A program made the translations under genes and the position numbers. The notes below the pieces were generated by a model that had not been told where the DNA came from, ran no database searches, and saw only the letters and a program-made list of their open reading frames with translations. Below, piece after piece: positions 4,911 through 55,392 of a stretch of DNA of 64,000 nt. Source of the DNA: Minisyncoccota bacterium (GTDB taxonomy: Bacteria; Patescibacteriota; Minisyncoccia; JBAYJV01); the NCBI GenBank assembly GCA_041664925.1, contig JBAYJV010000002.1, forward strand, positions 72,302-136,301, given 5' to 3'. The first letter of the stretch is position 1. Each line of letters opens with the position of its first letter.

Positions 4911-4939
4911 ATATTCTTTGTGATAGAATGCATATAGAA
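4911..4939 (+). promoter_or_regulatory. promoter TTGACT-17-TAGAAT for two-gene small-protein operon
   Basis: consensus hexamers; RBS AAAAGGAGG 5 nt before ATG 4956. Confidence 0.5.
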
Positions 4940-4955
4940 ATCAAAAGGAGGAACC

Positions 4956-5246
4956 ATGTCAGATCTGCAACTAGCGATGATGGAGGAAAATCGTCGTAAT
5001 TTGAAAGTGACTGTCCTACATCGACCTGGCGGGAAATGGACCAATATTGAGGTTGGTAGGCTGATTAACGGTCTTATGACTGAAGCAGTTCAGTGTCGTG
5101 ACCATCCTGAGTACGTTGTGCTTTATGGTCATTACACCAAAGAACAAACACTAGAGGCTCTCGGCGGTGTAATGGCTTATACAGCTATTCAGGTTACGGG
5201 AGCGGATGATCCGAGAATTCCATTTCCGACTGGTTTTTGCTTGTAG
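4956..5246 (+). CDS. hypothetical protein (96 aa)
   Basis: strong RBS AAAGGAGGAACC; no recognisable domain. Confidence 0.55.
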   Translation: MSDLQLAMMEENRRNLKVTVLHRPGGKWTNIEVGRLINGLMTEAVQCRDHPEYVVLYGHYTKEQTLEALGGVMAYTAIQVTGADDPRIPFPTGFCL

Positions 5247-5270
5247 AAAAAACGAACAAGGAGGCAAAAG

Positions 5271-5459
5271 GTGGGCAAGGAGCTTACGCAACTCATCGGA
5301 CAAATCGTGGATATCGTCATGTCTGATGGCGCAACAACGAGACTTGGAAGAAAACTTGAAAAGATTGATGGGAATAGGATTTACTTCTCTTTTAAAGGAC
5401 AAGAGGAGGTTCTTACGCTTGAAGAAATAGATGGAATTTATCCATCAGACGATGATTAA
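5271..5459 (+). CDS. hypothetical small protein (62 aa), possibly Sm-like fold; GTG start
   Basis: GGAGG 7 nt upstream of GTG; IGQIVDIVMSDGATTRLGRKLEKIDGNRIYF; terminator GGGACTGGaaagCCAGTCCC+T8 at 5474-5501. Confidence 0.5.
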   Translation: MGKELTQLIGQIVDIVMSDGATTRLGRKLEKIDGNRIYFSFKGQEEVLTLEEIDGIYPSDDD

Positions 5460-5555
5460 GCAACAGAAGTCATGGGACTGGAAAGCCAGTCCCTCTTTTT
5501 TATACATTTTTATTATGATTGATTTTTTGTTTAACTTGTTATATAATTGTTAGCA

Positions 5556-5786
5556 ATGAAAAAAATAGACGAGGCATATGAATTTAGTAAAACCCAGACT
5601 ACTGTTTCTGTATTTTTGGAAACTTATAATCAAAGCATTCCTGATGTTTTCCCGCATGCCTCCATTGAAAATTTAGGAGAATTTCAGAATTTCCATCCAG
5701 CATTATTCAAAGATAGAAATTTATGGTCTATTGCTCAGCACCGAAAAAAACTTATTGATTGGCTTTTCGAAAATAGTTTTGTTTAA
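5556..5786 (+). CDS. hypothetical protein (76 aa), probably leaderless
   Basis: ATG 5556 lies 7 nt after TATATAAT (-10) with TTGATT -35; ORF-track TTG start 5547 would sit inside the -10 box. Confidence 0.4.
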   Translation: MKKIDEAYEFSKTQTTVSVFLETYNQSIPDVFPHASIENLGEFQNFHPALFKDRNLWSIAQHRKKLIDWLFENSFV

Positions 5787-5903
5787 TAATCGGTTTATTA
5801 TAATCACATAAAAAAAGTCCCTATTAATGGGGCTTTTTACTTTGCCCTTCTGTAACCCTGAGCTTGCTGAAGACCAAAGGAGAGTGTTACCATAATCCTA
5901 CTG

Positions 5904-5932
5904 TTGACATTAAAATATTTAAGTGATAGGAT
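5904..5932 (+). promoter_or_regulatory. class-I promoter TTGACA-17-TAGGAT followed by AGTTCTCAAAA leader
   Basis: near-identical to promoter at 8138-8166. Confidence 0.5.
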
Positions 5933-5968
5933 GTGGTCAGTTCTCAAAAGCCAAGAGGAGGAAACAAA

Positions 5969-6415
5969 ATGGCAAAGAGTTTGCAGGAAATTGCAGATGA
6001 ATTTGGTTATAGTGTGGTTCATGATTTTCACGAGGGCTTAGCCTGTGCAAAAAAGGACGGAAAGTGGTTCCATATCCGTCCCGACGGTACTCCTGCTTAC
6101 GACTATAGATATGACGAAATTGAAGATTTTCACGAGGGCTTAGCCTGCGCAAGAAAAGGCAATGAGTGGTTCCATATTCGTCACGATGGCGTTCCTGCCT
6201 ATGAACAGAGATATGAAGAGACTGGACTTTTTTCTGAAGGCTTAGCCTATGCAATGAAAAATGGTAAAAAGTTCCATATTTGTCATGACGGTACTCCAGC
6301 CTATCAAAGAAGATTTACCAGTCTTGGGGATTTTTCAAATGGTTCAGCATATGCTGCATCAGATGAAGAACCGAGATCATTCCGCATTAATCATGCTGGT
6401 GAAAAAGTAAGCTAG
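5969..6415 (+). CDS. small protein made of four roughly 35-aa WG-like beta repeats (FHEGLAxAxKxGxWFHIRxDGTPAY)
   Basis: start moved to MAKSLQEIADEF after AAGAGGAGGAAAC; four tandem repeats resembling the WG-containing repeat family; paralog at 8207-8446; terminator 6423-6457. Confidence 0.6.
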   Translation: MAKSLQEIADEFGYSVVHDFHEGLACAKKDGKWFHIRPDGTPAYDYRYDEIEDFHEGLACARKGNEWFHIRHDGVPAYEQRYEETGLFSEGLAYAMKNGKKFHICHDGTPAYQRRFTSLGDFSNGSAYAASDEEPRSFRINHAGEKVS

Positions 6416-6496
6416 CATACAGCCCATAGATAAATTATTGTCTATGGGTATTTTTTTATGCTTTCATAGAACTTTTATAGTATAATAATTACTAAC

Positions 6497-6865
6497 ATGA
6501 AAAAAGAATTAATAGCGCCATGTGGAATGAATTGCGGTGTTTGTCTTCATTATCTGCGGGAACATAATAAGTGTCCCGGTTGTTTTACTGGCAGAAAAGT
6601 CAATCAAGCGTGCATAAAATGTGGCATTAAACTTTGCAAAGACAGGCGAGGAGAGTATTGTTTTGATTGTGATAAATTTCCTTGCGAACGGCTTAAGCGC
6701 TTGGATAAAAGATATTGCAATAGACATGGAATGAGCGAAATAGAAAATCTAAAAACCATCAAAACAAAAGGAATAAAATACTTTTTAACTCAGGAAGAAA
6801 AGAGATGGGTAAATCCAGATGGCACATATTGTGTTCATGATAAAAAACGATATTTAATTAAATGA
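6497..6865 (+). CDS. cysteine-rich DUF3795-like protein
   Basis: CGMNCGVCLHY...CPGC...CIKCGIKLC...CFDCDKFPC pattern. Confidence 0.5.
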   Translation: MKKELIAPCGMNCGVCLHYLREHNKCPGCFTGRKVNQACIKCGIKLCKDRRGEYCFDCDKFPCERLKRLDKRYCNRHGMSEIENLKTIKTKGIKYFLTQEEKRWVNPDGTYCVHDKKRYLIK

Positions 6866-6888
6866 TTTTTTTGGTATAATTAAAAAAC

Positions 6889-7404
6889 ATGGAACAACAA
6901 AAATGTTACGAAAACTATCCTTTTTGGATGGTAATAGTTTCAAACATCATTTCATTTGCCATTTATATTATAGGAGGATTTCTTGTTTATCAGGTTGGCT
7001 TATTGTGGTTATTGCTTTATATCTGCTATATCTTGATTTTGGAAATAAAGTTGTTAAAAGGACATTGTGTGAATTGTTATTATTTTGGAAAAACCTGTTT
7101 TTCTGGGAAAGGAAGGCTGAGCAGTCTATTTTTCAAAAGAGGTAAGCCAACAAAATTCATTGATATAAAAATAACTTGGAAAGATATTGTTCCAGACTTT
7201 TTGATTTCAGTCATTCCTATTCTTGTCGGAATTGTTGTCCTTGTGAGAAATTTTAATTGGATAATTCTTTTATTCACAGTAGCGCTCTTTTTCCTAGGAT
7301 TTTTAGGAAATGCATTAGTAAGAGGTCATTTGGCCTGTAAATACTGCAAACAGCGAGAGCTTGGATGTCCGGCTCAAAAATTATTTAATAAAACTAAGCA
7401 ATAA
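6889..7404 (+). CDS. hypothetical 4-TM membrane protein with CxxC pairs
   Basis: hydrophobic helices; HCVNCYYFGKTC and CKYCKQRELGC motifs. Confidence 0.5.
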   Translation: MEQQKCYENYPFWMVIVSNIISFAIYIIGGFLVYQVGLLWLLLYICYILILEIKLLKGHCVNCYYFGKTCFSGKGRLSSLFFKRGKPTKFIDIKITWKDIVPDFLISVIPILVGIVVLVRNFNWIILLFTVALFFLGFLGNALVRGHLACKYCKQRELGCPAQKLFNKTKQ

Positions 7405-7407
7405 AAT

Positions 7408-8121
7408 ATGAAAAAAAATATCATTCCCATCATCTTGATCGTAGTTATCATAATTGCAGGTTTATTTATATGGTATGCCAATACTAAATCAAGCAAAAAA
7501 CTATCCCTGATAACTCAAGTTACTTACACTTGCAACGGCGACAAAACCATAAACGCTACTTTCTATAAAGGAGAATCAAAGCAAGTTGAGCCTGGACAGC
7601 CGCCGATTCCTTCGGGAAGCGTGAAAATTATCTTAAGCGATGGACGAAGTCTTGACCTACTCCAAACAATTTCTGCAGACGGAGCGCGTTATGCCGATAG
7701 TGACGAATCTTTTATCTTTTGGAGCAAGGGAGATAGTGCGCTTGTATTGGAAAACAATGTCGAAAAAGATTATGTAGGATGTATTTTGCCCATAGAAGGA
7801 ATAAAAGTTCTTTCACCGAACGGCGGAGAGACTTGGTCAAAAGGGGAAAAGGTTGAAATATTGTGGAGTACAGCGAAAGAAATAAAATCTGTAAATATAA
7901 GATTGGCAATTTCCGGAAATGAAGATAGTCAAAGTTTTAATGCCGCTATTGTTTCTAATATTCCGAACTCCGGTAGCTACGAGTGGATTGTTCAGGATTT
8001 ATACGCAGAGGTATTGGGTATCAAAGATTTACCTGTATCAGATAAATATCTTATTACAATAGAGGATAGCGAACATAACAATGTGTACGATACGAGCGAT
8101 GCAATATTCAGCATCAAATGA
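7408..8121 (+). CDS. secreted/membrane-anchored protein with MliC-like (C-type lysozyme inhibitor) domain plus C-terminal beta domain
   Basis: N-terminal anchor IIPIILIVVIIIAGLFIWY; YTCNGDKTINATF...ILSDGRSLDLLQTISADGARYADSDESFIFWSKGDSALV resembles MliC fold signature. Confidence 0.45.
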   Translation: MKKNIIPIILIVVIIIAGLFIWYANTKSSKKLSLITQVTYTCNGDKTINATFYKGESKQVEPGQPPIPSGSVKIILSDGRSLDLLQTISADGARYADSDESFIFWSKGDSALVLENNVEKDYVGCILPIEGIKVLSPNGGETWSKGEKVEILWSTAKEIKSVNIRLAISGNEDSQSFNAAIVSNIPNSGSYEWIVQDLYAEVLGIKDLPVSDKYLITIEDSEHNNVYDTSDAIFSIK

Positions 8122-8137
8122 ACTGCTTCTCGTTATA

Positions 8138-8166
8138 TTGACATTAAGATACAAGAGTGATAAGAT
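8138..8166 (+). promoter_or_regulatory. class-I promoter TTGACA-17-TAAGAT followed by AGTTCTCG leader
   Basis: paralogous to 5904-5932. Confidence 0.5.
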
Positions 8167-8206
8167 GTAGGAAGTTCTCGGGGGAAATAAAAGGAGGGCG
8201 AGTAAA

Positions 8207-8446
8207 ATGCCAATGAGTACCCAGGAAGCTAGAAGAAAGTTTAGGTATGATTTTATCGGGCCGTTTGTCGAAGGATTAGCTTGTGTAAAGAAAGGAAATG
8301 AATGGTTCCATGTCCGTCTCGATGATCATATGCCTGCCTATGACCAGCGGTTTGATGATGTTGGGAACTTCCACAATGGAATTGCAACAGTAAAGAAAGA
8401 TGGCAGAGAATTCCAGATTCGTCCGGATGGCACAAGAGTAGGCTAG
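8207..8446 (+). CDS. small WG-like beta-repeat protein (two repeats), paralog of 5969-6415
   Basis: FVEGLACVKKGNEWFHVRLDDHMPAY...FHNGIATVKKDGREFQIRPDGT; RBS AAAAGGAGGG; terminator 8456-8487 near-identical to 6423-6457. Confidence 0.6.
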   Translation: MPMSTQEARRKFRYDFIGPFVEGLACVKKGNEWFHVRLDDHMPAYDQRFDDVGNFHNGIATVKKDGREFQIRPDGTRVG

Positions 8447-8507
8447 TGCGAGTAGCCCATAGATAGGTTATCTATGGGTCTTTTTTTATGGTAAAATATA
8501 AATCAAT

Positions 8508-9098
8508 ATGGATATAAAAATTATTTTTGCAACACTTGCGACTGCAATAGCGGTTTTGGGTTCTTCAATTCCTTATTTTAGAGATATAATATCAAAAAAA
8601 ACACATCCGCATTCATTCACTTGGTTGATTTGGGCTATTACTCAAGGAACTGCAACTGCTGCTTTATGGTGTGGAAAAGGTGGTTTTGGGGTGATTAGTC
8701 CGACAATAGGAACTTGTTCAATTATATTTATATTTCTTTTGTCTCTGCGTTATGGTGAAAAGAATATAACTCGCAGTGACATAATCTGCCTGACCGTAGC
8801 TATTCTTGCAATTCTGGTTTGGTGGCTATTGAATAATCCATTAATATCAGTAATTTTAGTTTGCCTTATTGACGCAATTGCATTTATCCCAACGTTTAGA
8901 AAATCATACAATCATCCTTGGTCAGAGAAACTTTCTGCTTGGGAAGTAGGGGTCATCGCTAGTATTTTTGGAATATTGGCAATTAGTAATTACAATGCAT
9001 TAACCCTACCATATCTCCTTATGACTTTGTTGTCGTCAATAATATTTTCGTTATTTCTCATTATTCGAAGGAGAAAAATTCCAATGGTTGTTAAATAG
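8508..9098 (+). CDS. hypothetical integral membrane protein (6 TM)
   Basis: 196 aa, six hydrophobic segments. Confidence 0.5.
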   Translation: MDIKIIFATLATAIAVLGSSIPYFRDIISKKTHPHSFTWLIWAITQGTATAALWCGKGGFGVISPTIGTCSIIFIFLLSLRYGEKNITRSDIICLTVAILAILVWWLLNNPLISVILVCLIDAIAFIPTFRKSYNHPWSEKLSAWEVGVIASIFGILAISNYNALTLPYLLMTLLSSIIFSLFLIIRRRKIPMVVK

Positions 9099-9169
9099 AA
9101 AAAAATAATTTAGAATTATGTAATAACCCTCAAAGGTCGATTTAATTTATTAACTCAAAAAATAATATT

Positions 9170-9811
9170 ATGAATAAAATATACATAGGCATAGGAGTTG
9201 TAGTGGTCGCAGGTGCAATCGTAGCCGGTGTTCTTTTAAAAAAACCAAGCGATCAAGCTGCTAACACAAATAAAGAAGAAACTAATAGCCAAACAGACGA
9301 AACGGTAAATCCCAACGGTTCGTATTCAATCAATGATTTATTTACTATGAATAGACCATTGAAGTGTACTTGGGTAGAAAGCGCAACGGGAGATAAGGAT
9401 GTAACCAATGTCTTGTACATCAACGGCAAGAAGTTTTATCAAGATGTAACTATGGGCGATATCGGACATGCTTTCACAATAAGCGATGGCGAATATCTTT
9501 ACATTTGGAATGATTTTAATGATACGGCTTCAAAAATGAAGGTCACAGAGACTGAAACTGGCATTAAACAAGAACAGGGAGCTACCGCAACCGATCAGAA
9601 AAAAGATTTTGTTTGCGAAAAATGGTCAGTTGATGCTTCTGTTTTCAATCCACCCCAAGATAAAAACTTTCAAGATGTAACCGAAGAAATGAATCAAGCA
9701 ATGCAAAGTGTGGATTTAGAAAAAACAAAACAGCAAGTCTGTGACTTATGCGAAGGAGCGCCAACTCAAGAATTAAAAGACCAATGCTTAGCAAATTCAC
9801 AGTGTGATTAA
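9170..9811 (+). CDS. hypothetical secreted protein, Cys-rich C-terminus
   Basis: signal anchor IYIGIGVVVVAGAIVAGVLL; C-terminal CDLCEG...CLANSQCD; terminator about 9825-9858. Confidence 0.5.
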   Translation: MNKIYIGIGVVVVAGAIVAGVLLKKPSDQAANTNKEETNSQTDETVNPNGSYSINDLFTMNRPLKCTWVESATGDKDVTNVLYINGKKFYQDVTMGDIGHAFTISDGEYLYIWNDFNDTASKMKVTETETGIKQEQGATATDQKKDFVCEKWSVDASVFNPPQDKNFQDVTEEMNQAMQSVDLEKTKQQVCDLCEGAPTQELKDQCLANSQCD

Positions 9812-9923
9812 TGGTTAAAAAAAACTGCTTTAGATTAAATCAAGGGCAGTTTTTTTAATTTTTAGCTTTTTCTTGACATTTAAATGGTGTTATGATAGGA
9901 TAGTTGCAGCTAAAGGGGGAACT

Positions 9924-11338
9924 ATGAACGGAGATAAAGAAGTTAGTGGTGTAGTTGAGTTAATAACGGCTGCGGCAGAGCATAGGGACGATCAAGGCTA
10001 CAATTATTGTCTCAGTGGAGATCTTGGTCAAATGTCAGTTCAGAAAGAGTTTCTGATGAGCAGAGGAATGGACGTTGGGCAGCGAGATGTCTATCCTGCT
10101 TTAAGAAATGAGGATGACTTTAGAAGAGCCCTTGGGCTTATATGGGGAAATAAGATTGAGGGATGGTGGAATTACTCAAAAAATATTCTTATGGAGTATG
10201 AAATTTGTACCGAAGATGAATTCATGCAAGCCCTTGAAATTGCATGTGCAAGGGAAAATCCAAAAGGAGGTCGAATGGTAACTAGTAGACCATGGTACGA
10301 TTCAAAGGATGGAATTGCGGCATCTCTCGTTTCTCTGGAGAAATTTCTTGAATTAGTTCAGGCGCGACACGAAGCAGGTTATAGTAGGGGCGAAAGGCTT
10401 AGACAATGGGTTGTTTTAGGGCGTTATTGGCTTGACACATGTGGGAATTGCTGGAAAGCAAAAAAGGATGCTCCTTGGAATGTTATTCCAAAGGAAGCGT
10501 TTCCTGATATTCCAGATGTTGTGTCGGAATTTGAAGCAGAATGGGGGCCTGCAATGAAGGACACAATATTCTCTGCGGGTGGTGGCTTGCCTCATCCTCA
10601 TCTTCTTTGTCCTCATTGCCATAAAGGATGGACAATTAGAAATTGCCACGACACGATTGTTCTGCGTAATTTCAAGAGTTTTTCTCTTGTAAACTTCGTA
10701 GGAAAAACTCTTGGAGAAGTTAGAAAAGCTTTTTCTAAAAGACGGGATGCCATTTACGTTCTGCAACCAGACACTATGATTCGCAATGATAGATTTATCG
10801 ATCATTCTCCCGAATATCCCGGAGCCACCGAGGATTGGGAGAAGAATGAGGAAAAAATCGCTATGGGTGGGTTGGTATTGAAGACGGTATTGACGATAAC
10901 TATGTTATTCAGAAGGGCGATGAAGGACTTTTTACCGTTTGGACGTATGAACATACAGATTGCCATAAAGAGCGAATTGCCAGGAAGAAACAGTATCGCT
11001 TTATGGCGATTTTCAAGAGTGCAGGGTTTAAGGTTGTCAGAACAAAACGAATTCCTAACGAATATTGTCCTTGTGATTACTGTGCGCCATGGTTTTTGAT
11101 GGAAACGGAATTCGGAACCATCAAGATTGGTTGGCGCAAGCGAGTTATTAATATAAACTGGAGCGATGTCGCCAAGAAACTTGAAGAACGCGGATACGAG
11201 AATGCTAGTCAGAAAATCTTGGCGCTTTTTGAAAGCGAGGATGTTACAAAAGACGGATCAAACATTCACGCTTGGGGATATGAAAAAGCCAAGGGTTATC
11301 TACGGCAAATCCGCAAATACTTGAAATCTTTGGAATAA
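9924..11338 (+). pseudogene. hypothetical protein gene interrupted by a frameshift at an A6 run (10852-10857); frames 0 and 2 together encode about 470 aa
   Basis: frame-0 ORF (true start ATG 9924 after AAAGGGGGAACT) turns into low-complexity read-through after ...EDWEKNEEK, while frame 2 is open from 10850 and continues as ...YGWVGIEDGIDDNYVIQKGDEGLFTVWTYEHTDCHKE...MAIFKSAGFKVV to 11338; could instead be an assembly indel. Confidence 0.5.
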
Positions 11339-11378
11339 GTATACAAGAGTGGGCAACCTAGTATGGTTGCCCATTTTC

Positions 11379-11407
11379 TTGACATTTGAATATTTACTTG
11401 CTACGAT
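11379..11407 (+). promoter_or_regulatory. class-I promoter TTGACA-17-TACGAT followed by AGTTATTAAAAAAGCCAAGGAGG
   Basis: consensus spacing; leader motif variant. Confidence 0.5.
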
Positions 11408-11440
11408 ATTAGCAGTTATTAAAAAAGCCAAGGAGGAGCA

Positions 11441-11902
11441 ATGGCAGCAGGCGATACTGAAAGAGGACGAAATAGTGCATACGTTGTTGCTATTAGAATA
11501 TTGGCGGTAATAATATTGACTTCAGGAATTTTCTATTTTGGATCTTTGTGTCAAAGTAACAGATTTGCTCGAGATCGAGAGGATCTTGCTTACTATCAGA
11601 AAACTTATCTGCACAAGTCAGGATACATGGAAGGTTATGGAAATTATCTTCTTCGTTCTTTTGATGGTGGAAAAAATTGGTTTGCTATTGACCTTGAACG
11701 AGCCAAAAACCATGAAGTTGTAATTCTGGGTCCAGTCGAAGATATTTATTCTGGACTGATGGCCAAGATTCAAGGATTCGATGATTTGAGCACCTATGTA
11801 AGAGAACATGGACCGATTACTTTGAGTGGCGAGAATGCAGCTCAAGAAAAAGCGATTCTTGAAAAAGCAGGATTTACTGTGACCGAAACAGTCAAGCCAT
11901 AG
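11441..11902 (+). CDS. hypothetical membrane-anchored protein
   Basis: 153 aa; TM VVAIRILAVIILTSGIFYF; terminator GAGGCACTagcaaAGTGCCTC+T7 (11912-11939). Confidence 0.5.
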   Translation: MAAGDTERGRNSAYVVAIRILAVIILTSGIFYFGSLCQSNRFARDREDLAYYQKTYLHKSGYMEGYGNYLLRSFDGGKNWFAIDLERAKNHEVVILGPVEDIYSGLMAKIQGFDDLSTYVREHGPITLSGENAAQEKAILEKAGFTVTETVKP

Positions 11903-11940
11903 ATATGATTCGAGGCACTAGCAAAGTGCCTCTTTTTTTA

Positions 11941-11969
11941 TTGACATACTTTAATGATAAAGGTAGAAT
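11941..11969 (+). promoter_or_regulatory. class-I promoter TTGACA-17-TAGAAT followed by AGTTCTTAAAAAAA
   Basis: consensus. Confidence 0.5.
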
Positions 11970-12016
11970 GCAGATAGTTCTTAAAAAAATCTGATTAAAA
12001 GAGAGAAGGAGAGAAA

Positions 12017-12493
12017 ATGAAAAAAAGAGGAATGAAGTGTTTGGGATGTAGCAAGGCGATAACAACAAAAACAAGATGGACTATTTTTAATTACGATGGT
12101 TTCAGATTTAGAATTGACAGAGGTACCGATATTTGTCCAAAATGTGCAAAGGCTGAAGCAATTAGAACGTTTGAAAAAGTAAGAAAAGGATTCGTGTGGC
12201 TTCGTAACGGTGAAGTTGTTGTTAATTGGAGAGCTTTTGTAGATAATAGAGAAAGAGGCGTTGGAAGAAACATGATAGAAACATTAGAAAATTTAAATAT
12301 TCTATCTCTATACGCTAAAGGACGTTGGAGTCTTGTAGGTATTGGTCCTGTGGAGATTAATCCTCGATCAAGTCTTCTGCCTCATTATTTCACGCGCTTA
12401 AGTGACGCACGTGCCTATGGGAGGGCAAAATTTGGGAGAAGCGGACGTATAGAAATTCGTCATATAGACAGGGTTACCAGTATAGGAGTATAA
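12017..12493 (+). CDS. hypothetical protein with N-terminal zinc-ribbon (CxxC...CxxC)
   Basis: KCLGCSKAI...ICPKCAKAEA; terminator TCCCCGAA...TTCGGGGA+T8 (12501-12538). Confidence 0.5.
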   Translation: MKKRGMKCLGCSKAITTKTRWTIFNYDGFRFRIDRGTDICPKCAKAEAIRTFEKVRKGFVWLRNGEVVVNWRAFVDNRERGVGRNMIETLENLNILSLYAKGRWSLVGIGPVEINPRSSLLPHYFTRLSDARAYGRAKFGRSGRIEIRHIDRVTSIGV

Positions 12494-12667
12494 AAGTTAG
12501 TCCCCGAACTGCACTAGTCTGTTTCGGGGATTTTTTTTATTGTCTTTTATTTCATTATGAATTAAAATAGTATCATGAAATGCAAAATATAAAACGAAAA
12601 CTAGAAACGACGATTTAAGATTTTTAATTTTGCATTGTAATTTTCCACTTCTTGTGGTGAGCTTGTC

Positions 12668-12700
12668 GAACCATTCACTTTAAATTTTTAATTTTCTATT
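12668..12700 (+). promoter_or_regulatory. class-II motif (TTCACTTTAAATTTTTAATTTTCTATT) directly before GTG start
   Basis: see 3369-3402. Confidence 0.4.
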
Positions 12701-12949
12701 GTGCTGGGATATTTAATGCTCGTTTTATTAATCGTGGTTCTCGTCGTATATTTTTTGCTGACGTGGTCGGTAGTTTTTCATTTGAAATCATACGATCTTT
12801 CGCCTAGAGTGACACGCACAATTTTGAGTGTATTTTTAATAGTTGTCTTAATATTATTCATTTTGAATATCATTTTTTATGCCCGAATTCCTTGGAATAA
12901 TATTTCTCAAAATATCGGCAATTTCTTTCAAAACAAATTTCCACAATAA
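12701..12949 (+). CDS. small 2-TM membrane protein, apparently leaderless (GTG start)
   Basis: 82 aa, LMLVLLIVVLVVYFLL and ILSVFLIVVLILFILNIIF. Confidence 0.4.
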   Translation: MLGYLMLVLLIVVLVVYFLLTWSVVFHLKSYDLSPRVTRTILSVFLIVVLILFILNIIFYARIPWNNISQNIGNFFQNKFPQ

Positions 12950-12962
12950 TCTTAATAATTTG

Positions 12963-12998
12963 TAGTTTTCACTTTGCATTTTAAACTTTTAACTTTCT
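12963..12998 (+). promoter_or_regulatory. class-II motif (TTTTCACTTTGCATTTTAAACTTTTAACTTTCT) directly before ATG
   Basis: motif ends at the start codon, implying a leaderless mRNA. Confidence 0.4.
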
Positions 12999-13568
12999 AT
13001 GATTCGCCTAAACCCCAACGAAACAATTTTAGCAGTTTACCACCGACATTGGTTTATTCTTTTCTTGAATCTTTTTTTGATTAGTTTTGTTGGAATTGTT
13101 GCGATTGTCGCGGTTTTTCTTTTAAGAAACTATGTGCCTGTTTTTACTACTTATCCTCTGAGCAATATCTTTCTTTGGGTTGGTGTTGTTGCGCTTCAAG
13201 GCGCTTGGATCGCAGCTTTTGTAAAAATAACTGATTATTGGCTTGACACTTGGGTTGTAACCAATGAACGCATTATTGATATTGAACAAAAAGGTCTTTT
13301 TAAAAGAGATATTGTTGAATTTAAACTAAACAGAATCCAAGATGTTTCTTTTGAGATTAAAGGCATTATTCCAACGCTTCTGGTTTACGGAAATCTTCGT
13401 ATTGATACTGCAGGATTTGATCGCAATTTCATCTTCTGGACAGTACCTAATCCTCAGCAAATAAAAAATGTGATTTTAAAAGCTTGTGATGAATATGTTG
13501 CTATGGAAAAAGCGGAAGCCAAAACGACAACCGCAACCACAATAGAGACACCAACAGAAAACATTTAA
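12999..13568 (+). CDS. bacterial PH-domain (bPH_2/DUF304, YdbS/YdbT-like) membrane protein
   Basis: ILAVYHRHWFILF, two TM helices, then TDYWLDTWVVTNERIIDIEQKGLFKRDIVEFKLNRIQDVSFEIKGII...YGNLRIDTAG. Confidence 0.6.
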   Translation: MIRLNPNETILAVYHRHWFILFLNLFLISFVGIVAIVAVFLLRNYVPVFTTYPLSNIFLWVGVVALQGAWIAAFVKITDYWLDTWVVTNERIIDIEQKGLFKRDIVEFKLNRIQDVSFEIKGIIPTLLVYGNLRIDTAGFDRNFIFWTVPNPQQIKNVILKACDEYVAMEKAEAKTTTATTIETPTENI

Positions 13569-13626
13569 AAATAAAAAAATCGGCTGTATTGCCGATACCT
13601 AACTTCCAACTTCTAGCTTCTGAATT

Positions 13627-14667
13627 CTAGCTATCCTTCGTGGGTAGTTTTTTTGTTTTCTCAGAAGACTCAATGGCAATTAAATTATCATTGAACTTTT
13701 CTAACCTTTTTTGACCGGATTCGTAAGTTGAATTAGCATGATTTAAATGTTTTCCCAAAAGATCAAAATCTTCGGCGAATTTTCCAAAATCATTTTTTAA
13801 GCGGGACAAATTTATAAGAATTTCTTTAGCGCCTTTTTCAATTTGAAGTCCCTTGAGACCGATCAAAATTGCCTGAAGATAAGCATAAAAGCTATTTGGG
13901 GAAACAGGAACGACTTTCTTTGATAGGGCATAACTGGTAATATTTGACGATTCTTTTTCTTTTAGAATAATTTCATAATAGACATTTTCGGCAGGTACAT
14001 ACATCAGAGCAAAATCAGAAGTTCCTTCAGCGGGTCTAATGTATTTTTCAGCGATACTATCAACATGTTTTTTTACATCACGCATAAACTGTTTTTTTGT
14101 GCTGATTTTTTCTTCGTGAGTTTTCGAAGCGATAATTTGTTTGAAATTTTCCAGAGGAAATTTTGAATCAACAGGAATCATCATATCGCGCAATCTCACG
14201 ATGGCATCAACCGTTTCACCATCGCGAAAACTATATTGAAGACTATAGTTTTCTCGCGGAAGAATTTGCTCTAAAATATCTGCTAAAAAATATTCTCCTA
14301 AACCGCCGCGCAATTTCGGCGCTTTTAAAATATCATGAAGCGAAGAAATATCTTTGCCGACTTCAAAAATTTTCTTTGATGATTCCTCAAGTCCAGTAAG
14401 TTTATTGGTTACTGACTGAACGACCCTTTGAGTATTGTCAAGGCGTGAATTTAGGTCTTGTCCTTGGCGTTGCATCATTTCCAAATTTTCTCTAAGCCTC
14501 AGATTAACCTGGCTAGTCACTTCATTTAATTGACCCAACATTTTTTCCGATAAGCCAGTTAAATCATTGGTATTTTTGGCAAAATGTTTTTTTGTAAAAT
14601 AAAAAACCAACCAAGAAAAAAAACCAAGAACAGCGATTAAAATAATAATTAATGAAATATTTTCCAT
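13627..14667 (-). CDS. rmuC: DNA recombination protein RmuC family
   Basis: N-terminal TM, coiled coil, KLRGGLGEYFLADILEQILP...DAIVRL...PVDSKFPLENF matches RmuC core. Confidence 0.75.
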   Translation of the reverse strand: MENISLIIILIAVLGFFSWLVFYFTKKHFAKNTNDLTGLSEKMLGQLNEVTSQVNLRLRENLEMMQRQGQDLNSRLDNTQRVVQSVTNKLTGLEESSKKIFEVGKDISSLHDILKAPKLRGGLGEYFLADILEQILPRENYSLQYSFRDGETVDAIVRLRDMMIPVDSKFPLENFKQIIASKTHEEKISTKKQFMRDVKKHVDSIAEKYIRPAEGTSDFALMYVPAENVYYEIILKEKESSNITSYALSKKVVPVSPNSFYAYLQAILIGLKGLQIEKGAKEILINLSRLKNDFGKFAEDFDLLGKHLNHANSTYESGQKRLEKFNDNLIAIESSEKTKKLPTKDS

Positions 14668-14766
14668 ACAATGATTTTACACGATTTTAATAAGGAGATA
14701 AAGAGGACAACTAACAATTTTTAATTTCTAATTTCTAATTTATAAACAATAAAAAATTTACTAGTA

Positions 14767-14794
14767 TTGACAACACAGAGATTTATAGTAGAAT
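14767..14794 (+). promoter_or_regulatory. class-I promoter TTGACA-16-TAGAAT followed by AGTTCTTAAAAAAGGAGG
   Basis: consensus. Confidence 0.5.
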
Positions 14795-14823
14795 AACAGT
14801 AGTTCTTAAAAAAGGAGGTTTAT

Positions 14824-15480
14824 ATGCTCAGCGAAGAATCGGCGCGAAGATTGGTCAGTAAAGTATCCGAAGGTTCTTTCTGTGTCACCCAGGATAGCAC
14901 TGTAAGAGCTTGTAGTTTTTTGATTAATTCTCGAACAGTTCTTCGAAAAATGATTGCACTAAGAGATTGCGCTCGCGAAGGATTCCCTTTAATATATGAA
15001 TTATTTGACGCTGGTATTCTTGATGTCCGTATTGACAGAAGAACTGCTCCTGAATTTCTTGAAGAATGTGAAAAAGAAGATCCGGAAGCAAGTTTAGTTA
15101 TTGCCGAACTTGATGTTTTTACTCTCTTTCTTGGATTGCTTCTTCCTCTTTATGATGAAGCAAAAGAGCGTTGGATTTTTTCTGACGAGGATGTTGCAAT
15201 AACTCTTCGTGAGAGATTCAAAGAAAGAAGCATTCCCGCTAGAACTGATTTAAGCGAAGATCTCCTTGTTCTTCTTGAGGAAAAACTTGGAGAATATGGA
15301 GAATTCATCAGAAAAGGAAATGACGATCTTTGTGCTGGTGTTGACCCTTGCATTATTGGACTTATTAATGTCGTTTTGACGGCTATCTACGAGTCGGTTA
15401 GTGTTTGGGGATGTGACGTAGACGATGTTCAGGGAGAGGTTAACAAAATTGGAAAGCATGAAAGCAGCGAGGCGCCATAG
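14824..15480 (+). CDS. hypothetical acidic protein (218 aa)
   Basis: no motif recognised; terminator GAGGCGCCatagGGCGCCTC+T6 at about 15463-15495. Confidence 0.5.
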   Translation: MLSEESARRLVSKVSEGSFCVTQDSTVRACSFLINSRTVLRKMIALRDCAREGFPLIYELFDAGILDVRIDRRTAPEFLEECEKEDPEASLVIAELDVFTLFLGLLLPLYDEAKERWIFSDEDVAITLRERFKERSIPARTDLSEDLLVLLEEKLGEYGEFIRKGNDDLCAGVDPCIIGLINVVLTAIYESVSVWGCDVDDVQGEVNKIGKHESSEAP

Positions 15481-15638
15481 GGCGCCTCTTTTTTGTGCAA
15501 AAAACTCGAGAAAATATCTCGAGCATCCGAAGTAATTTATTGAAGTCCGATTTATTCTGAAGAATTGAAGGACTTCAATAAAATTAAATATTTAAATTCC
15601 AAATTCCATATTCCATATTCCAACTTCTACATTCTTAA

Positions 15639-17015: not shown

Positions 17016-17140
17016 TTCTGTAATATAATTCTATAACAAAATATTCATTTGTCAATAGTTCGACCAGCTCACCACAAGTATTCTTGGTATGGCCACTTTT
17101 CTTGAGAATGAAAATTTGTTATACTGGAATTAATTAATTT

Positions 17141-17689
17141 TTGTATAACATCATGATCAGAAATATTATTTTCATTATTATCGGTTTTCTCTTGGGCGTA
17201 TTTTTGACATCCAGTCTTTCTTGGCGCGATATTGATTTTGATAATTTACGCCAGCATCCTTGGCAAGAAGTTGTAAGATTAAGAGGAATTGTTACGGAAC
17301 GACCTCAAATCAGTTCTAATTCGGCAGTTGTAACTAAGATTTTGGACGGTGATTCTGTTTTAATTGAAGGCGGAGACGAAGTGATTCTCCTCGGAATTAT
17401 TGCCGATGAGGTAGGGGAGCCGTGTTATCAGGTAGCGAAAGATAAATTATCAGAATTAACGCTGGGCAAAAAAGCGACTTTAGTAAAAGATGTTAGTGAC
17501 AAAGACGAAGCTGGGCATTTATTGCGATATTTAAAAATTGACGACACGAATATCAATGTTGAATTAGCAAAACTTGGCTTAGTATCGCTTAAAATCAACA
17601 ATAATGTGACAATGTACAAGAATGACCTTATCTTCGCAGAACAAATAGCAAAGAATGGAAAAACAGGGTGCAAGTGGACAGTCAAATAG
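17141..17689 (+). CDS. thermonuclease (SNase-like) family protein, membrane anchored
   Basis: VTKILDGDSVLIEGGDEVILLGIIADE...KATLVKDVSDKDEAGHLLRYL...VELAKLGLV pattern of staphylococcal-nuclease homologs. Confidence 0.55.
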   Translation: MYNIMIRNIIFIIIGFLLGVFLTSSLSWRDIDFDNLRQHPWQEVVRLRGIVTERPQISSNSAVVTKILDGDSVLIEGGDEVILLGIIADEVGEPCYQVAKDKLSELTLGKKATLVKDVSDKDEAGHLLRYLKIDDTNINVELAKLGLVSLKINNNVTMYKNDLIFAEQIAKNGKTGCKWTVK

Positions 17690-17699
17690 CTCAAAGTTC

Positions 17700-17865
17700 A
17701 ACCCCGCAAAATTCTTAGTGAACAATAGTGAACTTAGAATTTAGGGAGTCCCGTGAACTTTCATGTTATTTCCAAGAAATATTAAGAATTCACGGGGTCC
17801 TCGCAAAACTATTTCTTCGTATATACTCAAAAAGTTTTGCGGGAAGTTTAAAATTTAAAACCAAA
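17700..17865. repeat. nested inverted-repeat structure (about 160 nt) 3' of nuclease gene
   Basis: outer CCCCGCAAAA ... TTTTGCGGG, inner GAGTCCCGTGAA ... TTCACGGGGTCCTC, plus CGCAAAACT...AGTTTTGCG; no ORF. Confidence 0.4.
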
Positions 17866-21310: not shown

Positions 21311-21339
21311 TTGACATTTGCGTGATTATGACTTAGGAT
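21311..21339 (+). promoter_or_regulatory. class-I promoter TTGACA-17-TAGGAT followed by AGTTCCTAAAAAC
   Basis: consensus. Confidence 0.5.
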
Positions 21340-21379
21340 ACTATCAGTTCCTAAAAACTTAGCACAAAGGAGAAGAGTT

Positions 21380-25293: not shown

Positions 25294-25322
25294 TTGACAA
25301 ATAAATATATTTGATATAAGAT
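25294..25322 (+). promoter_or_regulatory. class-I promoter TTGACA-17-TAAGAT with downstream AGTTCTTCAAAAATCAAGGAGG
   Basis: consensus. Confidence 0.5.
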
Positions 25323-25364
25323 AAAAAAGAATCAATTAGTTCTTCAAAAATCAAGGAGGAAAAA

Positions 25365-28642: not shown

Positions 28643-28671
28643 TTGACTTTTTAATATTAATATGGTAGACT
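28643..28671 (+). promoter_or_regulatory. class-I promoter TTGACT-17-TAGACT followed by AGTTCTTAAACAAA
   Basis: duplicated at 29603-29631. Confidence 0.5.
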
Positions 28672-28708
28672 GACGACAGTTCTTAAACAAATACATAAGG
28701 AGAAGAAA

Positions 28709-29602: not shown

Positions 29603-29631
29603 TTGACTTTTTAATATTAATATGGTAAGAT
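29603..29631 (+). promoter_or_regulatory. class-I promoter TTGACT-17-TAAGAT followed by AGTTCTTATACAA
   Basis: 35 bp around the -35 identical to 28630-28665. Confidence 0.5.
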
Positions 29632-29667
29632 AGGAGAGTTCTTATACAATGGATACGAGGAGGGAAG

Positions 29668-35900: not shown

Positions 35901-36061
35901 AATCCCTCCTTTTCTATTTAAAGAACTATAAGTTTATTGTATCAAATATTATTCAAAAATCAATCATATCTTTGTAATATAAATAAAAAAAGAGGCTAGT
36001 CTTCTGCGACTAGCCCTCTTAGTTCTGTCAGCGGCATGCCTGAGATGCCACGCAAGAACTC

Positions 36062-40514: not shown

Positions 40515-40742
40515 TTTTCCTCCTTTGTTAGTTTTGTAAAGAACTATAAATTGAATTGTATCAGCAAATGCACCCTAAGTCAATGTTTTTAGTTGCTTTT
40601 TTTAAGAAAGTATGCTAATAATATAATATATATGAGTTCTTTAAAAAATAGGCAGTGTCCGCCTTCATTAAAATTTCGGCGGACTTAAAATCTTCTACAG
40701 CCTCGTTTCACTCGGCAAGAAGCTTTAAAGGAGGAAGAGAAA

Positions 40743-45824: not shown

Positions 45825-46085
45825 TTTTCCCTCCTGTTAGTTTCTTCTTTTTGAGCCGTAGACGAAAAACAGAAAAACTTACATCCTGAACGAAGTCGAA
45901 GGATTACATTATGTACCAATTTTTAAAGAACCTCTTTTATTCTATAACTAAAATAATGAATGTCAACATTGTCAACAGTTTTACTTGGTTATTTCATTTT
46001 AAAATCAATTTATCTCTCAACTTCTTTTAAAAAATGAAAAATGTGATACAATATTCATAATAATCATCATGTTAAATATAAAGAA

Positions 46086-53180: not shown

Positions 53181-53272
53181 ACTTTTAAAAAAACTCGAAG
53201 ATATTATTTTTCGGGTTTTTTGTTTATTAAAAAACCTCCGCTTATATACGGAGGCTATTGCTTATTTCTCTA

Positions 53273-53902
53273 TTAAAGATTCAGAATATCTCTCATTTGA
53301 TTTATGATTAAACGAGACCAATTTTCTATCACGACATCAGAAGATTGCATAAGTTGATCCAACTCTTCTAGGCTATAATATGATCCGCTTTCAACCTCAG
53401 GATCTTTGGGTTGGACTCTAGTTGCTTGCGTTTTTACCAAATAAACGACACCAAAATGAACCTTTCCAACATCATCAGAATCATCATTGATGAATCCAAT
53501 TGGCACGATTTCAGAAGAACCTTCTATAATAACTTCTTCTCCCAACTCTCTAGTGGCGCCTAATCTAATAGGGTTTCCTTCTTGAGTATCTTGTTGTTCT
53601 AGGTGTCCTCCAACTCCACAAGAAAGTTTTCCTTGCAATCTTTTTTCAGGATAACGATCATCGCGATTTGAGCGTCTGAAAACAAAAACTTTTCTGGTTA
53701 CTGGATTAACAATAACTATATATGCTATTGGTTGTTTAAATTTAGGATTTGATTCTGCCTCATCCCTAGCCATAAAAAGATGGTTTTTGAGAATAACATC
53801 CTCAAAATCGCCAGAAAATCTTTTTTGAACAAAACCATGGAAACATCCAGATTGAAAAAGAACTTCACGAGACACAACCATAATCACTTTTTTTGAAGGC
53901 AT
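53273..53902 (-). CDS. NUDIX-hydrolase-like family protein
   Basis: start at MPSKK after GGGAGGAAAT; GKLSCGVGGHLEQQDTQEGNPIRLGATRELGEEVII resembles Nudix box GX5EX7REUXEEXGU. Confidence 0.5.
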   Translation of the reverse strand: MPSKKVIMVVSREVLFQSGCFHGFVQKRFSGDFEDVILKNHLFMARDEAESNPKFKQPIAYIVIVNPVTRKVFVFRRSNRDDRYPEKRLQGKLSCGVGGHLEQQDTQEGNPIRLGATRELGEEVIIEGSSEIVPIGFINDDSDDVGKVHFGVVYLVKTQATRVQPKDPEVESGSYYSLEELDQLMQSSDVVIENWSRLIINQMRDILNL

Positions 53903-53977
53903 ATTTCCTCCCTTACGTAATTCCAATGTATCACATATAAATAAAACTTCAATATTGAATATTAAGATGAGAAACAG

Positions 53978-54006
53978 TTGACATAATCTTGGTTGTGTAA
54001 TAGAAT
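53978..54006 (+). promoter_or_regulatory. class-I promoter TTGACA-17-TAGAAT followed by AATCTTAGTTCTTCA leader
   Basis: leader nearly identical to that at 54595-54625. Confidence 0.5.
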
Positions 54007-54039
54007 AATCTTAGTTCTTCAGTTGACCAAGGAGGAAAG

Positions 54040-54549
54040 ATGAAAAGAACAATGGTTTTGTGGATTAGCGAAGGTGTGTATCATGAAGACTTAAGACTTG
54101 CTATACCACTTATTACTAATGTTGGTTTTGCTACTGACAGAGCTGAGAGTATAAAGGAAGCAATTCATGATCTTGAATTTAGCGAGCGTCCCGATGTAAT
54201 CGTGATTGGGCGTGTCGTTCTCTCAACGGAAAGATATCCGGAAAGAAAAAGAAAAAAGGATCGGACGGTTTGGGAAAAAGCTAATGAAAAAGGTAACCCT
54301 TTACGCATAGAGCTTGTTAAGTGGTTACTTGGCACTCCTGATGCTCTTGAGCAGATCGGAGAAGCTAAGAAATTTGATCCCAAACAAATTTTAGTTTATG
54401 GTTCTTTGAGAGACGATGAAGAAAAGATTTTAAGAAACATGGGAATTGAAAACGTCGTTATAATTGAAAGTAATGATTCTCTAGTTATTCTTAATGCTTT
54501 AAGAAAAATGGTCGCATCAAATCAAGAACAACCCTTGCCCGCAGAATAG
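54040..54549 (+). CDS. hypothetical protein (169 aa)
   Basis: RBS CAAGGAGGAAAG; terminator GCCCGCAGaataGCTGCGGGT+T. Confidence 0.5.
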   Translation: MKRTMVLWISEGVYHEDLRLAIPLITNVGFATDRAESIKEAIHDLEFSERPDVIVIGRVVLSTERYPERKRKKDRTVWEKANEKGNPLRIELVKWLLGTPDALEQIGEAKKFDPKQILVYGSLRDDEEKILRNMGIENVVIIESNDSLVILNALRKMVASNQEQPLPAE

Positions 54550-54571
54550 CTGCGGGTTTTTCTTTTTAGCA

Positions 54572-54600
54572 TTGACATAATGTCGCTTATGCAATAGGAT
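54572..54600 (+). promoter_or_regulatory. class-I promoter TTGACA-17-TAGGAT followed by AATCTTAGTTCTTCA leader
   Basis: paralogous to 53978-54006. Confidence 0.5.
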
Positions 54601-54636
54601 AATCTTAGTTCTTCACAATCAGCCTAAGGAGGCAAA

Positions 54637-55392
54637 ATGTTTCGTGAGGTGGCAAAACAGACGCTGGGAGTAATCGTCGGGGGAGTAATTGGCGGATTAA
54701 TTGCTTTCCTTATCGGAGGATCATTCTGGTGGATTGGCGTTCTTTCTGGAGGATTCATCGGCTATCTGGCCGGAGAACCAAAAGAACTTCTTCAGGGACT
54801 TAGAGCGGCAAGAAGATGCTTTGTGCACTTGAAGCCAATTGATCGACCGGGATATCGGTTTTTGCTCGGTATTCTTTCTAGTTCTTGGGTACTTGTTTGC
54901 GGAATTATCCTTTCAATCCATTTCTCCTCAACGATTTATCATTTTGGAGTAAATATTGCAATCATCACCATTGGAATACTTATGGGGATGGCCTATATTC
55001 TTCCGGCTTTATACATGAAAAATCTTGAAAAAGACTATCTTCCGCTGGTTTGCAAAGATATGGTTAAATTAGATTGGCTAAGCGCATTAATTCATTTTCC
55101 AATTTTCCTTCTGTTTAGTATATGTCTAATTTTTCAAGGTACTTGGAATGACTTCTTATTCCCATGCCTTAAAGCTTCTTGGCGTTTTTTCCGCTACATC
55201 CACTCCCGAAAGAGGGCGATTCGTCTCATTGACTCAATGATAGTCGCTTTCATCGCTTGGAGATTTGGTGGAAATATCCCTGAAATTGCGACTATCGGAA
55301 TTGTCGGTGGACTTGTGGTAGCGCCGATTCACTACTATCTTGTCTCAATCAAACTTCTTGGACTTGTGCCGAATGGCGGAACAAGTCATTAA
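54637..55392 (+). CDS. hypothetical polytopic membrane protein
   Basis: RBS CTAAGGAGGCAAA; multiple TM helices. Confidence 0.5.
   Translation: MFREVAKQTLGVIVGGVIGGLIAFLIGGSFWWIGVLSGGFIGYLAGEPKELLQGLRAARRCFVHLKPIDRPGYRFLLGILSSSWVLVCGIILSIHFSSTIYHFGVNIAIITIGILMGMAYILPALYMKNLEKDYLPLVCKDMVKLDWLSALIHFPIFLLFSICLIFQGTWNDFLFPCLKASWRFFRYIHSRKRAIRLIDSMIVAFIAWRFGGNIPEIATIGIVGGLVVAPIHYYLVSIKLLGLVPNGGTSH

Follow-up and report, generated by a model that had tools for sequence, protein, structure and literature searches.

The stretch of DNA analyzed here (the window) comprises 64 kb with a GC content of 36% and belongs to a 'Candidatus Paceibacterota' metagenome-assembled genome (MAG), that is, to an uncultivated member of the Paceibacteria within the candidate phyla radiation (CPR). 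The same sequence is also contained in the 186-kb metagenome contig Ga0376277_0000593. Housekeeping genes are found across the window (ClpB, TopA, CysS, PBP2, MreBCD, RecJ, RarA, and L10/L12), together with a DUF4012 gene and a gene for a 23S-IVS four-helix-bundle protein. A phage or plasmid origin was rejected, since megablast against phage records gave no match, the genes behind the element described below have no PHROGs matches, and housekeeping genes occur throughout. This element is a promoter-leader module in which a near-consensus promoter is followed, at the predicted transcription start, by a conserved first-transcribed sequence, AGTTCTTAAAA, which closes a promoter block of about 46 bases.

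Twelve units of the window share the canonical arrangement: a -35 hexamer, a spacer of 16-17 nt, a -10 box of the form TAnnnT, five or six further bases (N5-6), and then RGTT[C/A][T/C] (Table 1). The -35 hexamer reads TTGACA in nine and TTGACT in three of them, and the -10 boxes are TAGAAT, TAGGAT, TAAGAT, TACGAT, TAGACT, or TAAACT, so that these promoters are of the sigma-70 (sigma-A) type; they are close to consensus and often carry a TG-extended -10. The motif itself has the consensus R-G-T-T-C-T-Y-W-A-A-A-A, with G+2, T+3, and T+4 invariant and C+5 present in all units but one. Its initial A or G coincides in the 12 units with the predicted start, a purine about 7 nt past the -10. Two minus-strand units, 45966(-) and 63007(-), both carry GGTTCTTTAAAA. 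Including five displaced copies, the window contains 17 copies of the motif, all in sense orientation. As for the -10 boxes, the consensus of this organism is TAGAAT/TAGGAT/TAAGAT and not TATAAT, with T at the third position in only 10% of 31 promoter-like sites. Boxes of the TAGRAT type are used with or without the motif at +1, and the distant metagenome matches have TATAAT-like boxes. One additional match on the plus strand, TTGACT-18-TAAGAT-N5-GGTTCTG at 32146-32175, falls within the GPI gene (31580-32350, minus strand) in antisense orientation and may be due to chance or represent an antisense promoter.

Table 1. Units carrying the promoter-leader module in the window; all positions are window coordinates.
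Unit	Motif	Block	Strand	Promoter and motif	Gene(s)	Terminator	Remarks
5904	canonical	5904..5950	+	TTGACA-17-TAGGAT-N6-AGTTCTCAAAAG	5969-6415, WG-repeat protein	6422-6449	
8138	canonical	8138..8184	+	TTGACA-17-TAAGAT-N6-AGTTCTC	8207-8446, WG-repeat paralogue	8455-8479	
11379	canonical	11379..11425	+	TTGACA-17-TACGAT-N6-AGTTATTAAAAA	11441-11902, N-terminal transmembrane segment, no family match	11912-11932	
11941	canonical	11941..11987	+	TTGACA-17-TAGAAT-N6-AGTTCTTAAAAA	12017-12493, CxxC...CxxC protein, no family match		
14767	canonical	14767..14812	+	TTGACA-16-TAGAAT-N6-AGTTCTTAAAAA	14824-15480	15469-15488	Shine-Dalgarno from +13
21311	canonical	21311..21357	+	TTGACA-17-TAGGAT-N6-AGTTCCTAAAAA	21380-21751	21760-21782	
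28643	canonical	28643..28689	+	TTGACT-17-TAGACT-N6-AGTTCTTAAACA	28709-29569, HAD/Cof-type hydrolase	29573-29598	
29603	canonical	29603..29648	+	TTGACT-17-TAAGAT-N5-AGTTCTTATACA	29668-30528, second HAD hydrolase	30536-30560	
45966(-)	canonical	45921..45966	-	TTGACA-16-TAGAAT-N6-GGTTCTTTAAAA	45297-45824, transmembrane protein	45284-45257	leader 108 nt
53978	canonical	53978..54024	+	TTGACA-17-TAGAAT-N6-AGTTCTTCAGTT	54040-54549	54537-54557	
54572	canonical	54572..54618	+	TTGACA-17-TAGGAT-N6-AGTTCTTCACAA	54637-55392, multi-pass membrane protein	55399-55421	
63007(-)	canonical	62962..63007	-	TTGACT-16-TAAACT-N6-GGTTCTTTAAAAGGAGG	62749-62952, 67-aa orphan	62730-62710	
25294	displaced	25294..25349	+	TTGACA-17-TAAGAT, AGTTCTTCAAAA beginning 16 nt past the -10 (about +11)	25365-25901	25909-25928	
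35963(-)	displaced	35916..35963	-	TTGATT-16-TACAAT-N8-AGTTCTTTAAAT	35625-35900 and 35447-35614, small membrane proteins	35437-35415	
40583(-)	displaced	40534..40583	-	TTGACT-17-TACAAT-N9-AGTTCTTTACAA	40158-40514, transmembrane protein	40156-40125	
40635(+)	displaced	40600..40646	+	weak -35, TATAAT-N7-AGTTCTTTAAAA	40743-41936, Rossmann-fold dehydrogenase-like protein	41943-41967	divergent from 40583(-); 108-nt structured leader
63600(-)	displaced	63549..63600	-	TTGACA-16-TAGAAT, AGTTCCTAAATA at about +7	none credible (~520 nt)	63049-63025	candidate non-coding RNA

A module shared by at least 13 transcription units had been proposed in the initial annotation of this DNA. The module proved real, with its 12 canonical units and five displaced copies, and the list of instances had to be revised. 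The site at 27703 has no motif on the sense strand, where AGAACT occurs in inverted orientation only, and the promoter at 4901, with which the annotated range began, starts with AGAAAT instead of AGTTCT. What had been listed as one unit at 'about 40580' consists of two divergent units, 40583(-) and 40635(+). The canonical units 45966(-) and 63007(-) had been missed, and the unit at 63600 does bear the motif, displaced to +7, with no open reading frame (ORF) downstream.

The feature is statistically overwhelming in this genome. Among 19 sites of the form TTGACA-N16-18-TAnnnT, nine carry [AG]GTT[CA][TC] exactly 6 nt past the -10, which is the usual distance already given in the initial annotation; compared to a background of 0.002 per position, this corresponds to a binomial p = 5e-20. 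When the full module was searched in a loose form, we counted 13 instances, whereas 200 simulations with a second-order Markov model yielded 0.065 on average and never more than 1. The 11-mer AGTTCTTAAAA, with at most one mismatch, was matched 15 times versus 6.5 +/- 2.45 in shuffles, and this excess is wholly explained by nine promoter-linked copies. A general property of strong promoters was rejected as the cause: in 78 loci from other phyla (1.28 Mb), none of 84 promoter-like sites had the motif, and AGTTCT following TATAAT-N6 was not enriched in phage contigs (74 matches versus at least 120 and 21 for scrambled controls).

Not all promoters of the genome are marked in this way. The motif is absent or displaced at the promoters of tRNA-Glu, L10/L12, DUF4012, and three candidate non-coding RNAs. 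The strong promoter of a conserved gene encoding a 209-aa helix-turn-helix (HTH)-like protein has a different start, as do two promoters preceding non-coding stretches. Transcripts starting with AG are also predicted at motif-free promoters. The tRNA-Glu gene (2621-2696, minus strand) has a consensus promoter with a predicted start 1-2 nt ahead of the 5' end of the tRNA. The three candidate non-coding RNAs, which would be lineage-specific, lie at 3963-4245 (+), 27677-27514 (-), and 63600-63025 (-). They measure approximately 250, 130, and 520 nt and have near-consensus promoters and terminators, no credible ORF, and no Rfam match at E up to 1; the 520-nt candidate contains strings faintly resembling RNase P RNA (GAGGAAACGUC, ACAGAGAAGGCAC).

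All motif-bearing units that front a protein gene have an AGGAG-type Shine-Dalgarno sequence, and their leaders are mostly 21-41 nt long and end in AAGGAGG-type sequences. Each protein-coding unit contains a single gene, except for 35963(-), in which the terminator follows the second of two small ORFs. A hairpin with a T-run was detected behind 15 of the 16 protein-coding units, and only a T-run follows the gene at 12017-12493. The view that these are independently transcribed cassettes, each closed by its own terminator, was thereby upheld. The products include two WG-repeat proteins, two HAD/Cof-type hydrolases, and one Rossmann-fold dehydrogenase-like protein; the remaining ones are small soluble or membrane proteins without any match in Pfam, NCBIfam, or PHROGs. 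Accordingly, the genes behind the motif all have either no or merely generic family matches.

The position of the motif at the expected start raises the question if it is read as RNA. The mRNAs would begin with pppAGUUCUU(A)n, and this end could be recognized by a protein or RNase setting mRNA stability, or UUCUU could pair with the purine-rich ribosome-binding region and thereby provide 5' protection or tune translation. A G at position 2 is what Bacillus RppH needs. Such an element would agree with the invariable sense orientation, with the location of 12 of the 17 copies at the expected +1, and with a subset of genes that combine short leaders and strong Shine-Dalgarno sequences. In predicted leader folds, motif positions 3-7 are paired in 12 of 16 cases, often with the Shine-Dalgarno region or early codons, and folding is slightly more favorable with the native heptamer than with permuted ones (mean rank 0.33; expected 0.5). 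But the folding signal is weak, and pyrimidine runs will generally pair with purine-rich ribosome-binding regions; a pairing of the 5' end in the manner of an anti-Shine-Dalgarno sequence was rejected on account of the weak signal. The distance between motif and Shine-Dalgarno sequence varies from 13 to approximately 95 nt, so that a translational enhancer was rejected. Moreover, the copies located at +4, +7, and +11 would lie inside the transcript and not at its 5' end, the copy of 63600 precedes a non-coding region, and homologues of RppH, Csp, and Hfq were not detected in the window. While RNases and ribosomes are conserved across wide phylogenetic distances, the motif is gone in relatives with 59% and 45% DUF4012 identity (see below). 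We therefore regard a 5'-terminal RNA element as rather unlikely. A known RNA family was not found either: Rfam covariance models run on the whole window at gathering score returned three tRNAs and nothing else, and searches of three sub-regions at E up to 1 gave sub-threshold noise only. A trans-acting antisense RNA was rejected, since neither the three candidate non-coding RNAs nor the rest of the window contain an anti-motif.

Some leaders and intergenic regions contain further repeated sequences. The box GTTTCACTCGGCAAGAAGCT is located downstream of two different long-leader motif promoters (window 40705-40724; L362, approximately 18720(-), same contig). Related hairpin-like inserts (CCTTCG...CGGAYGGATGTAAG) are found within leaders at approximately 45880(-) of the window, at 3075 of L097, and at 1650 of L359. 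A 24-nt repeat, TCATCCTGAGYGMAGCGAAGGATC, occurs in intergenic regions at 22514(+), 35283(+), 62651(+), and 27835(-). The exact 20-mer TTCTAACTTCCAAATTCTAA was found twice, and sites of its class lie in the window at 33908(-), 32375(-), 19210(-), 34291(+), and 34319(+). G-poor relatives of it are placed immediately upstream of housekeeping genes that lack a Shine-Dalgarno sequence (GPI, CysS, and the 23S-IVS protein), and leaders of this type form a second, contrasting leader class in the same genome.

We subsequently compared the promoters with each other. The promoters at 53978 and 54572 match at 86% identity in a stretch of 44 nt that runs exactly from -35 to +9, and blastp between the respective proteins (54040 and 54637) found no match. 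Those at 28643 and 29603 align over 58 nt at 88% and have 32 nt (-43 to -10) in common without any difference, and the proteins behind them (28709/29668) are paralogues (20% identity, E = 8e-6). A third pair, 11941 and 28643, matches over 55 nt at 84%. The WG-repeat paralogues of units 5904 and 8138 are 54% identical and their terminators are similar; these two promoters were evidently duplicated together with genes and terminators. The closest-matching promoters are near neighbors, 0.6 to 2.2 kb apart. Because the promoters are partly related by copying, the 13 units originally counted represent fewer than 13 independent events. Homology between the copies extends from the -35 and ends at +7 to +13. 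Between subfamilies, the spacers are only approximately 41% identical, which is near background, and the six bases before +1 vary, but RGTTCT is kept. Since spacers and N6 have diverged while the motif has not, pure hitch-hiking is excluded, and we infer that +1 to about +7 are held constant by selection. This agrees with the initial annotation, in which conservation beyond the hexamers was taken as a sign of function.

A relative of the organism, represented by contig Ga0247841_10001766 (L101/L356, hereafter L356), is syntenic with positions 450-18150 of the window at approximately 85% nucleotide identity in shared genes. Window positions 5840-12530, which contain four motif units and the promoter at 9873, are replaced by approximately 120 nt in this relative, and motif cassettes specific to L356 are located at L356 10703-12241 and 13667-14651. 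By this comparison, the module units are strain-variable accessory cassettes that lie in insertions/deletions. Islands of such promoter-gene-terminator cassettes are placed between conserved genes, and the island of L356 includes a HicAB toxin-antitoxin pair. The 5904 block (about -65 to +11; window 5875-5949) aligns with L356 6534-6609 at 84% identity (76 nt) and is there the promoter (L356 6564) of an unrelated gene for a 168-aa protein; tblastn of the latter against the window gave nothing. Orthologues of the 14767 promoter (L356 9945, L359 1600) have kept AGTTCTT but differ in the N6 and in the 5' half of the spacer. Since orthologous motif-free promoters are equally conserved at the same distance, this particular comparison does not single out the motif. 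The pairs 53978/54572, 28643/29603, and 5904/L356 show copying of the blocks ahead of strain-variable accessory genes in this Paceibacteria lineage.

Similar promoter stretches ahead of non-homologous genes, both within and between genomes, have been described as putative mobile promoters (Matus-Garcia et al. 2012, PMC3488235). Small families of them are common, and most members are close pairs (PMC3488235). They are defined by a length of >50 nt, an identity of >=80%, and non-homologous downstream (and upstream) coding sequences (PMC3488235). In our set, the pairs 5904/L356 (76 nt, 84%), 28643/29603 (58 nt, 88%), and 11941/28643 (55 nt, 84%) exceed both limits, and 53978/54572 (44 nt, 86%) is too short. 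The downstream genes are non-homologous in the case of the L356 168-aa gene and of 54040/54637; for 28709/29668 and 5969/8207 this does not fully apply. The copying described here fits putative mobile promoters, but the blocks are shorter (44-58 nt within the genome) with sharp ends at -35 and about +9 to +11, a first-transcribed heptamer is common to otherwise diverged subfamilies, and the blocks front terminator-closed, strain-variable accessory genes of a CPR bacterium.

The sharp ends could also mean that the motif has no role in expression at all, being instead a junction or anchor for cassette swapping by recombination or gene conversion, or a hitch-hiker in recently copied promoters. 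Homology between strains or copies indeed breaks just past +11 in two lineages, the units lie in the insertions/deletions described above, and the most similar promoters are neighbors. But neither a recombinase nor inverted repeats nor target duplications were seen, the breakpoints on the upstream side vary, and AGTTCT is kept between subfamilies whose spacers are near background. Such an anchor therefore seems improbable to us. The integron core site is GTTRRRY, which the motif does not resemble. Integron arrays are similar in being rows of small, strain-variable, mostly orphan genes. However, integron cassettes are promoterless and come with attC and an integrase, whereas each unit here has its own promoter and terminator; no attC was seen, and no integrase is present among the Pfam results or called genes of the window, so that the units are not integron cassettes. 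Also conceivable, though quite improbable, is a tag function: with pppAGUUCUU... at their 5' ends, somewhat like eukaryotic mRNAs with a 5'TOP motif, the transcripts of a mobile pool of accessory genes in a CPR episymbiont would be marked for joint post-transcriptional control, and the block would be a built-in landing pad for cassettes. Since the block ends exactly at the tag, a gene dropped behind it would join the regulon.

How far the motif extends beyond this organism was determined by counting TTGAC[AT]-type promoters with the motif at N5-7 in relatives ranked by DUF4012 identity. In the window (100%), 13 of 31 promoters carry it, compared to 3/10 in L356 (about 92%). At 64% identity, L364 has 2/11 as well as degenerate forms of the motif (AGTTGTTCA and AGATCTTAA, for example), and L365 has 1/13; none was found in L366 (59%, 0/7) and L367 (45%, 0/5). 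In the relatives, too, motif-bearing promoters front genes without Pfam matches. A genome scan with RarA, which is mostly common to other phyla, provided one relative (L003) and the negative-control set; the nearest species-level genome by RarA is a Nealsonbacteria MAG (71%). When metagenomes were scanned for the full 11-mer module, 56 loci were obtained, of which one (L101) is the close relative, and a rough estimate allows approximately ten chance matches. Other promoters in these loci have the motif in 4 of 74 cases. Given the estimate of chance matches, we do not claim a wide distribution of the module, and a property of all Patescibacteria was rejected in view of these 4/74 and of its absence at 59% and 45% DUF4012 identity. 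One unrelated organism from the same samples (L095, L097, L134, and L137) clearly has its own family of near-identical promoters of 46-51 nt, which ends at AGTTCTTAAAA and precedes differing sequences.

This distribution bears on the possibility that the motif acts at the level of RNA polymerase, the region from -35 to +11 being one complete strong promoter. The start would be fixed at A, G+2 would occupy the pocket for the core recognition element, and the A/U-rich first 11 nt would allow fast escape, while the stereotyped sequence would result from the descent of the promoters from one another. A G at +2 is part of the RNA polymerase core recognition element, and in phage promoters of the T5 N25 type the initial transcribed sequence, with a purine start and an A/U-rich early transcript, belongs to the functional promoter. 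The rigid N6, the purine at +1 followed by G, the AG starts of motif-free promoters, and the exclusive occurrence alongside near-consensus hexamers are in agreement with such a role, as is the promoter family of the unrelated organism. The homology from -35 to +7/+13 agrees as well, +7 to +13 being about the length that is transcribed before promoter escape. However, the known effects are mostly compositional or limited to +2, whereas here a specific heptamer including C+5 is confined to a promoter subset in one lineage. Equally strong promoters of the same genome lack it, AGTTCT in phage contigs does not exceed the scrambled controls, and no RNA polymerase contact is known to us by which T+3, T+4, C+5, and T+6 would be read. 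A variety of A/U-rich starts should do equally well, and the persistence of a single heptamer next to scrambled spacers would not be expected. The narrow lineage and the fading with distance further argue against a general property of RNA polymerase or ribosome; the fading takes place inside a clade of family level, all members of which should have the same RNA polymerase. A core-promoter element is a rather unlikely explanation but, like a 5'-terminal RNA element, a serious alternative.

Taken together, the feature can best be regarded as a family of portable promoter-leader blocks that is confined to one lineage and in which the first transcribed bases form a selected control element. The motif marks a promoter subset, as expected for the regulon element suggested in the initial annotation, but none of the mechanisms named there (regulator site, initiating sequence, RNA stability) is singled out. 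Tentatively, we favor the possibility that the conserved block contains the operator of a lineage-specific DNA-binding repressor. The operator would be part of a block of approximately 46 bp, consisting of a near-consensus -35, a spacer of 16-17 nt, a TAGRAT -10, six variable bases, and RGTTCTYWAAAA from the expected +1. A repressor bound at the transcription start of these intrinsically strong promoters would keep the accessory cassettes off together, and a signal would release it and turn them on, similar to a single-heptad SinR site (GTTCTYT). New genes would be enrolled in the same regulon whenever the promoter is copied with its operator.

Several observations are in line with a repressor. 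Near-consensus promoters are typical of repressor control rather than activator dependence. Copying of promoter plus operator would explain the fixed spacing and orientation. The conservation of G+2 and C+5 in a genome of 36% GC argues for a sequence-specific reader and not merely for an A/U-rich start. Displaced copies, which include one in L097 (4953), could be tolerated by DNA binding, but not by a strictly 5'-terminal function. The fading with phylogenetic distance is regulon-like and unlike properties of RNA polymerase or ribosomes. We also counted in favor of an operator that the motif marks a subset of promoters and occurs at promoters only.

A number of findings weigh against this assignment. 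The site is single and non-palindromic. It is always oriented with transcription and lies at N5-6 in 12 of 17 cases, which fits a role at the level of RNA polymerase or of the 5' RNA at least equally well unless this arrangement is inherited by copying. The full module is also found in distant metagenome contigs, which would require a widely shared regulator, horizontal transfer, or chance. No SinR/Xre, LexA, or AbrB homologue was detected in 84 kb of this genome, and the window also lacks a Cro homologue; when all ORFs of the window, L356, L359, and L003 were searched by phmmer, with SinR and 434 Cro as queries, no match had an E value below 0.08. The sole candidate that looks DNA-binding is the 67-aa orphan (62749-62952, minus strand), with a low-confidence structure model (predicted local distance difference test, pLDDT, 63) and no homologue but itself among 5.8 billion sequences. 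It is encoded behind a motif promoter, and its model predicts a strand-helix-helix order reminiscent of ribbon-helix-helix DNA binders.

Regarding known operators, single sites of the SinR heptad GTTCTYT are usable in Bacillus subtilis, where SinR represses surface and matrix genes from sites at their promoters (PMC5733473, PMC3163267). GTTCTTT matches this heptad at 7/7 positions, GTTCTTA and GTTCTCA at 6/7. Five units (35963(-), 40583(-), 40635(+), 45966(-), and 63007(-)) reach 7/7 and most others 6/7, although a 7-mer match alone is weak evidence. In contrast to most SinR operators, which contain paired heptads (inverted or tandem), there is one per promoter here, fixed at +2 to +8 and in orientation, in a different phylum. 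We regard the likeness to SinR as a lead rather than a test; our results do not support membership in the SinR system. Another well-known operator at the transcription start is CIRCE, the 9-N9-9 inverted repeat of heat-shock genes bound by HrcA, which also acts in the mRNA leader. Like CIRCE, our motif belongs to a defined set of genes, is conserved in the interval from the -10 to the start codon, and is present in DNA and RNA; unlike CIRCE, it has no dyad symmetry and precedes lineage-specific genes without assigned function. A 4-bp partial dyad, AGAA-N9-TTCT, is seen together with -10 boxes of the TAGAAT type.

Two other observations concern neighboring genes. An ECF-type (extracytoplasmic function) sigma factor with Sigma70_r2 and r4_2 domains (1288-1839, minus strand) adjoins a domain-less 259-aa protein (489-1268, minus strand); this pair is followed beyond the window edge by a MacB-type ATP-binding cassette (ABC) exporter, and the arrangement is kept in L356. 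The tRNA-Gln gene (22601-22672) is located inside the longest ORF called at 22542-23195, so that the start of this ORF is probably wrong.

In the literature searched, we found no paper describing the motif or the promoters of these bacteria, and gene control in the CPR (Patescibacteria) is almost unstudied, with tiny genomes, few regulators, and many lineage-specific genes. The combined signature of promoter and start provides a computational handle on a co-controlled set of accessory genes, which may take part in the episymbiotic lifestyle, and it poses the experimental question which factor reads AGTTCTT. It also shows how new genes get wired for expression, and it makes a strong promoter and leader available for the construction of genetic tools in these organisms.

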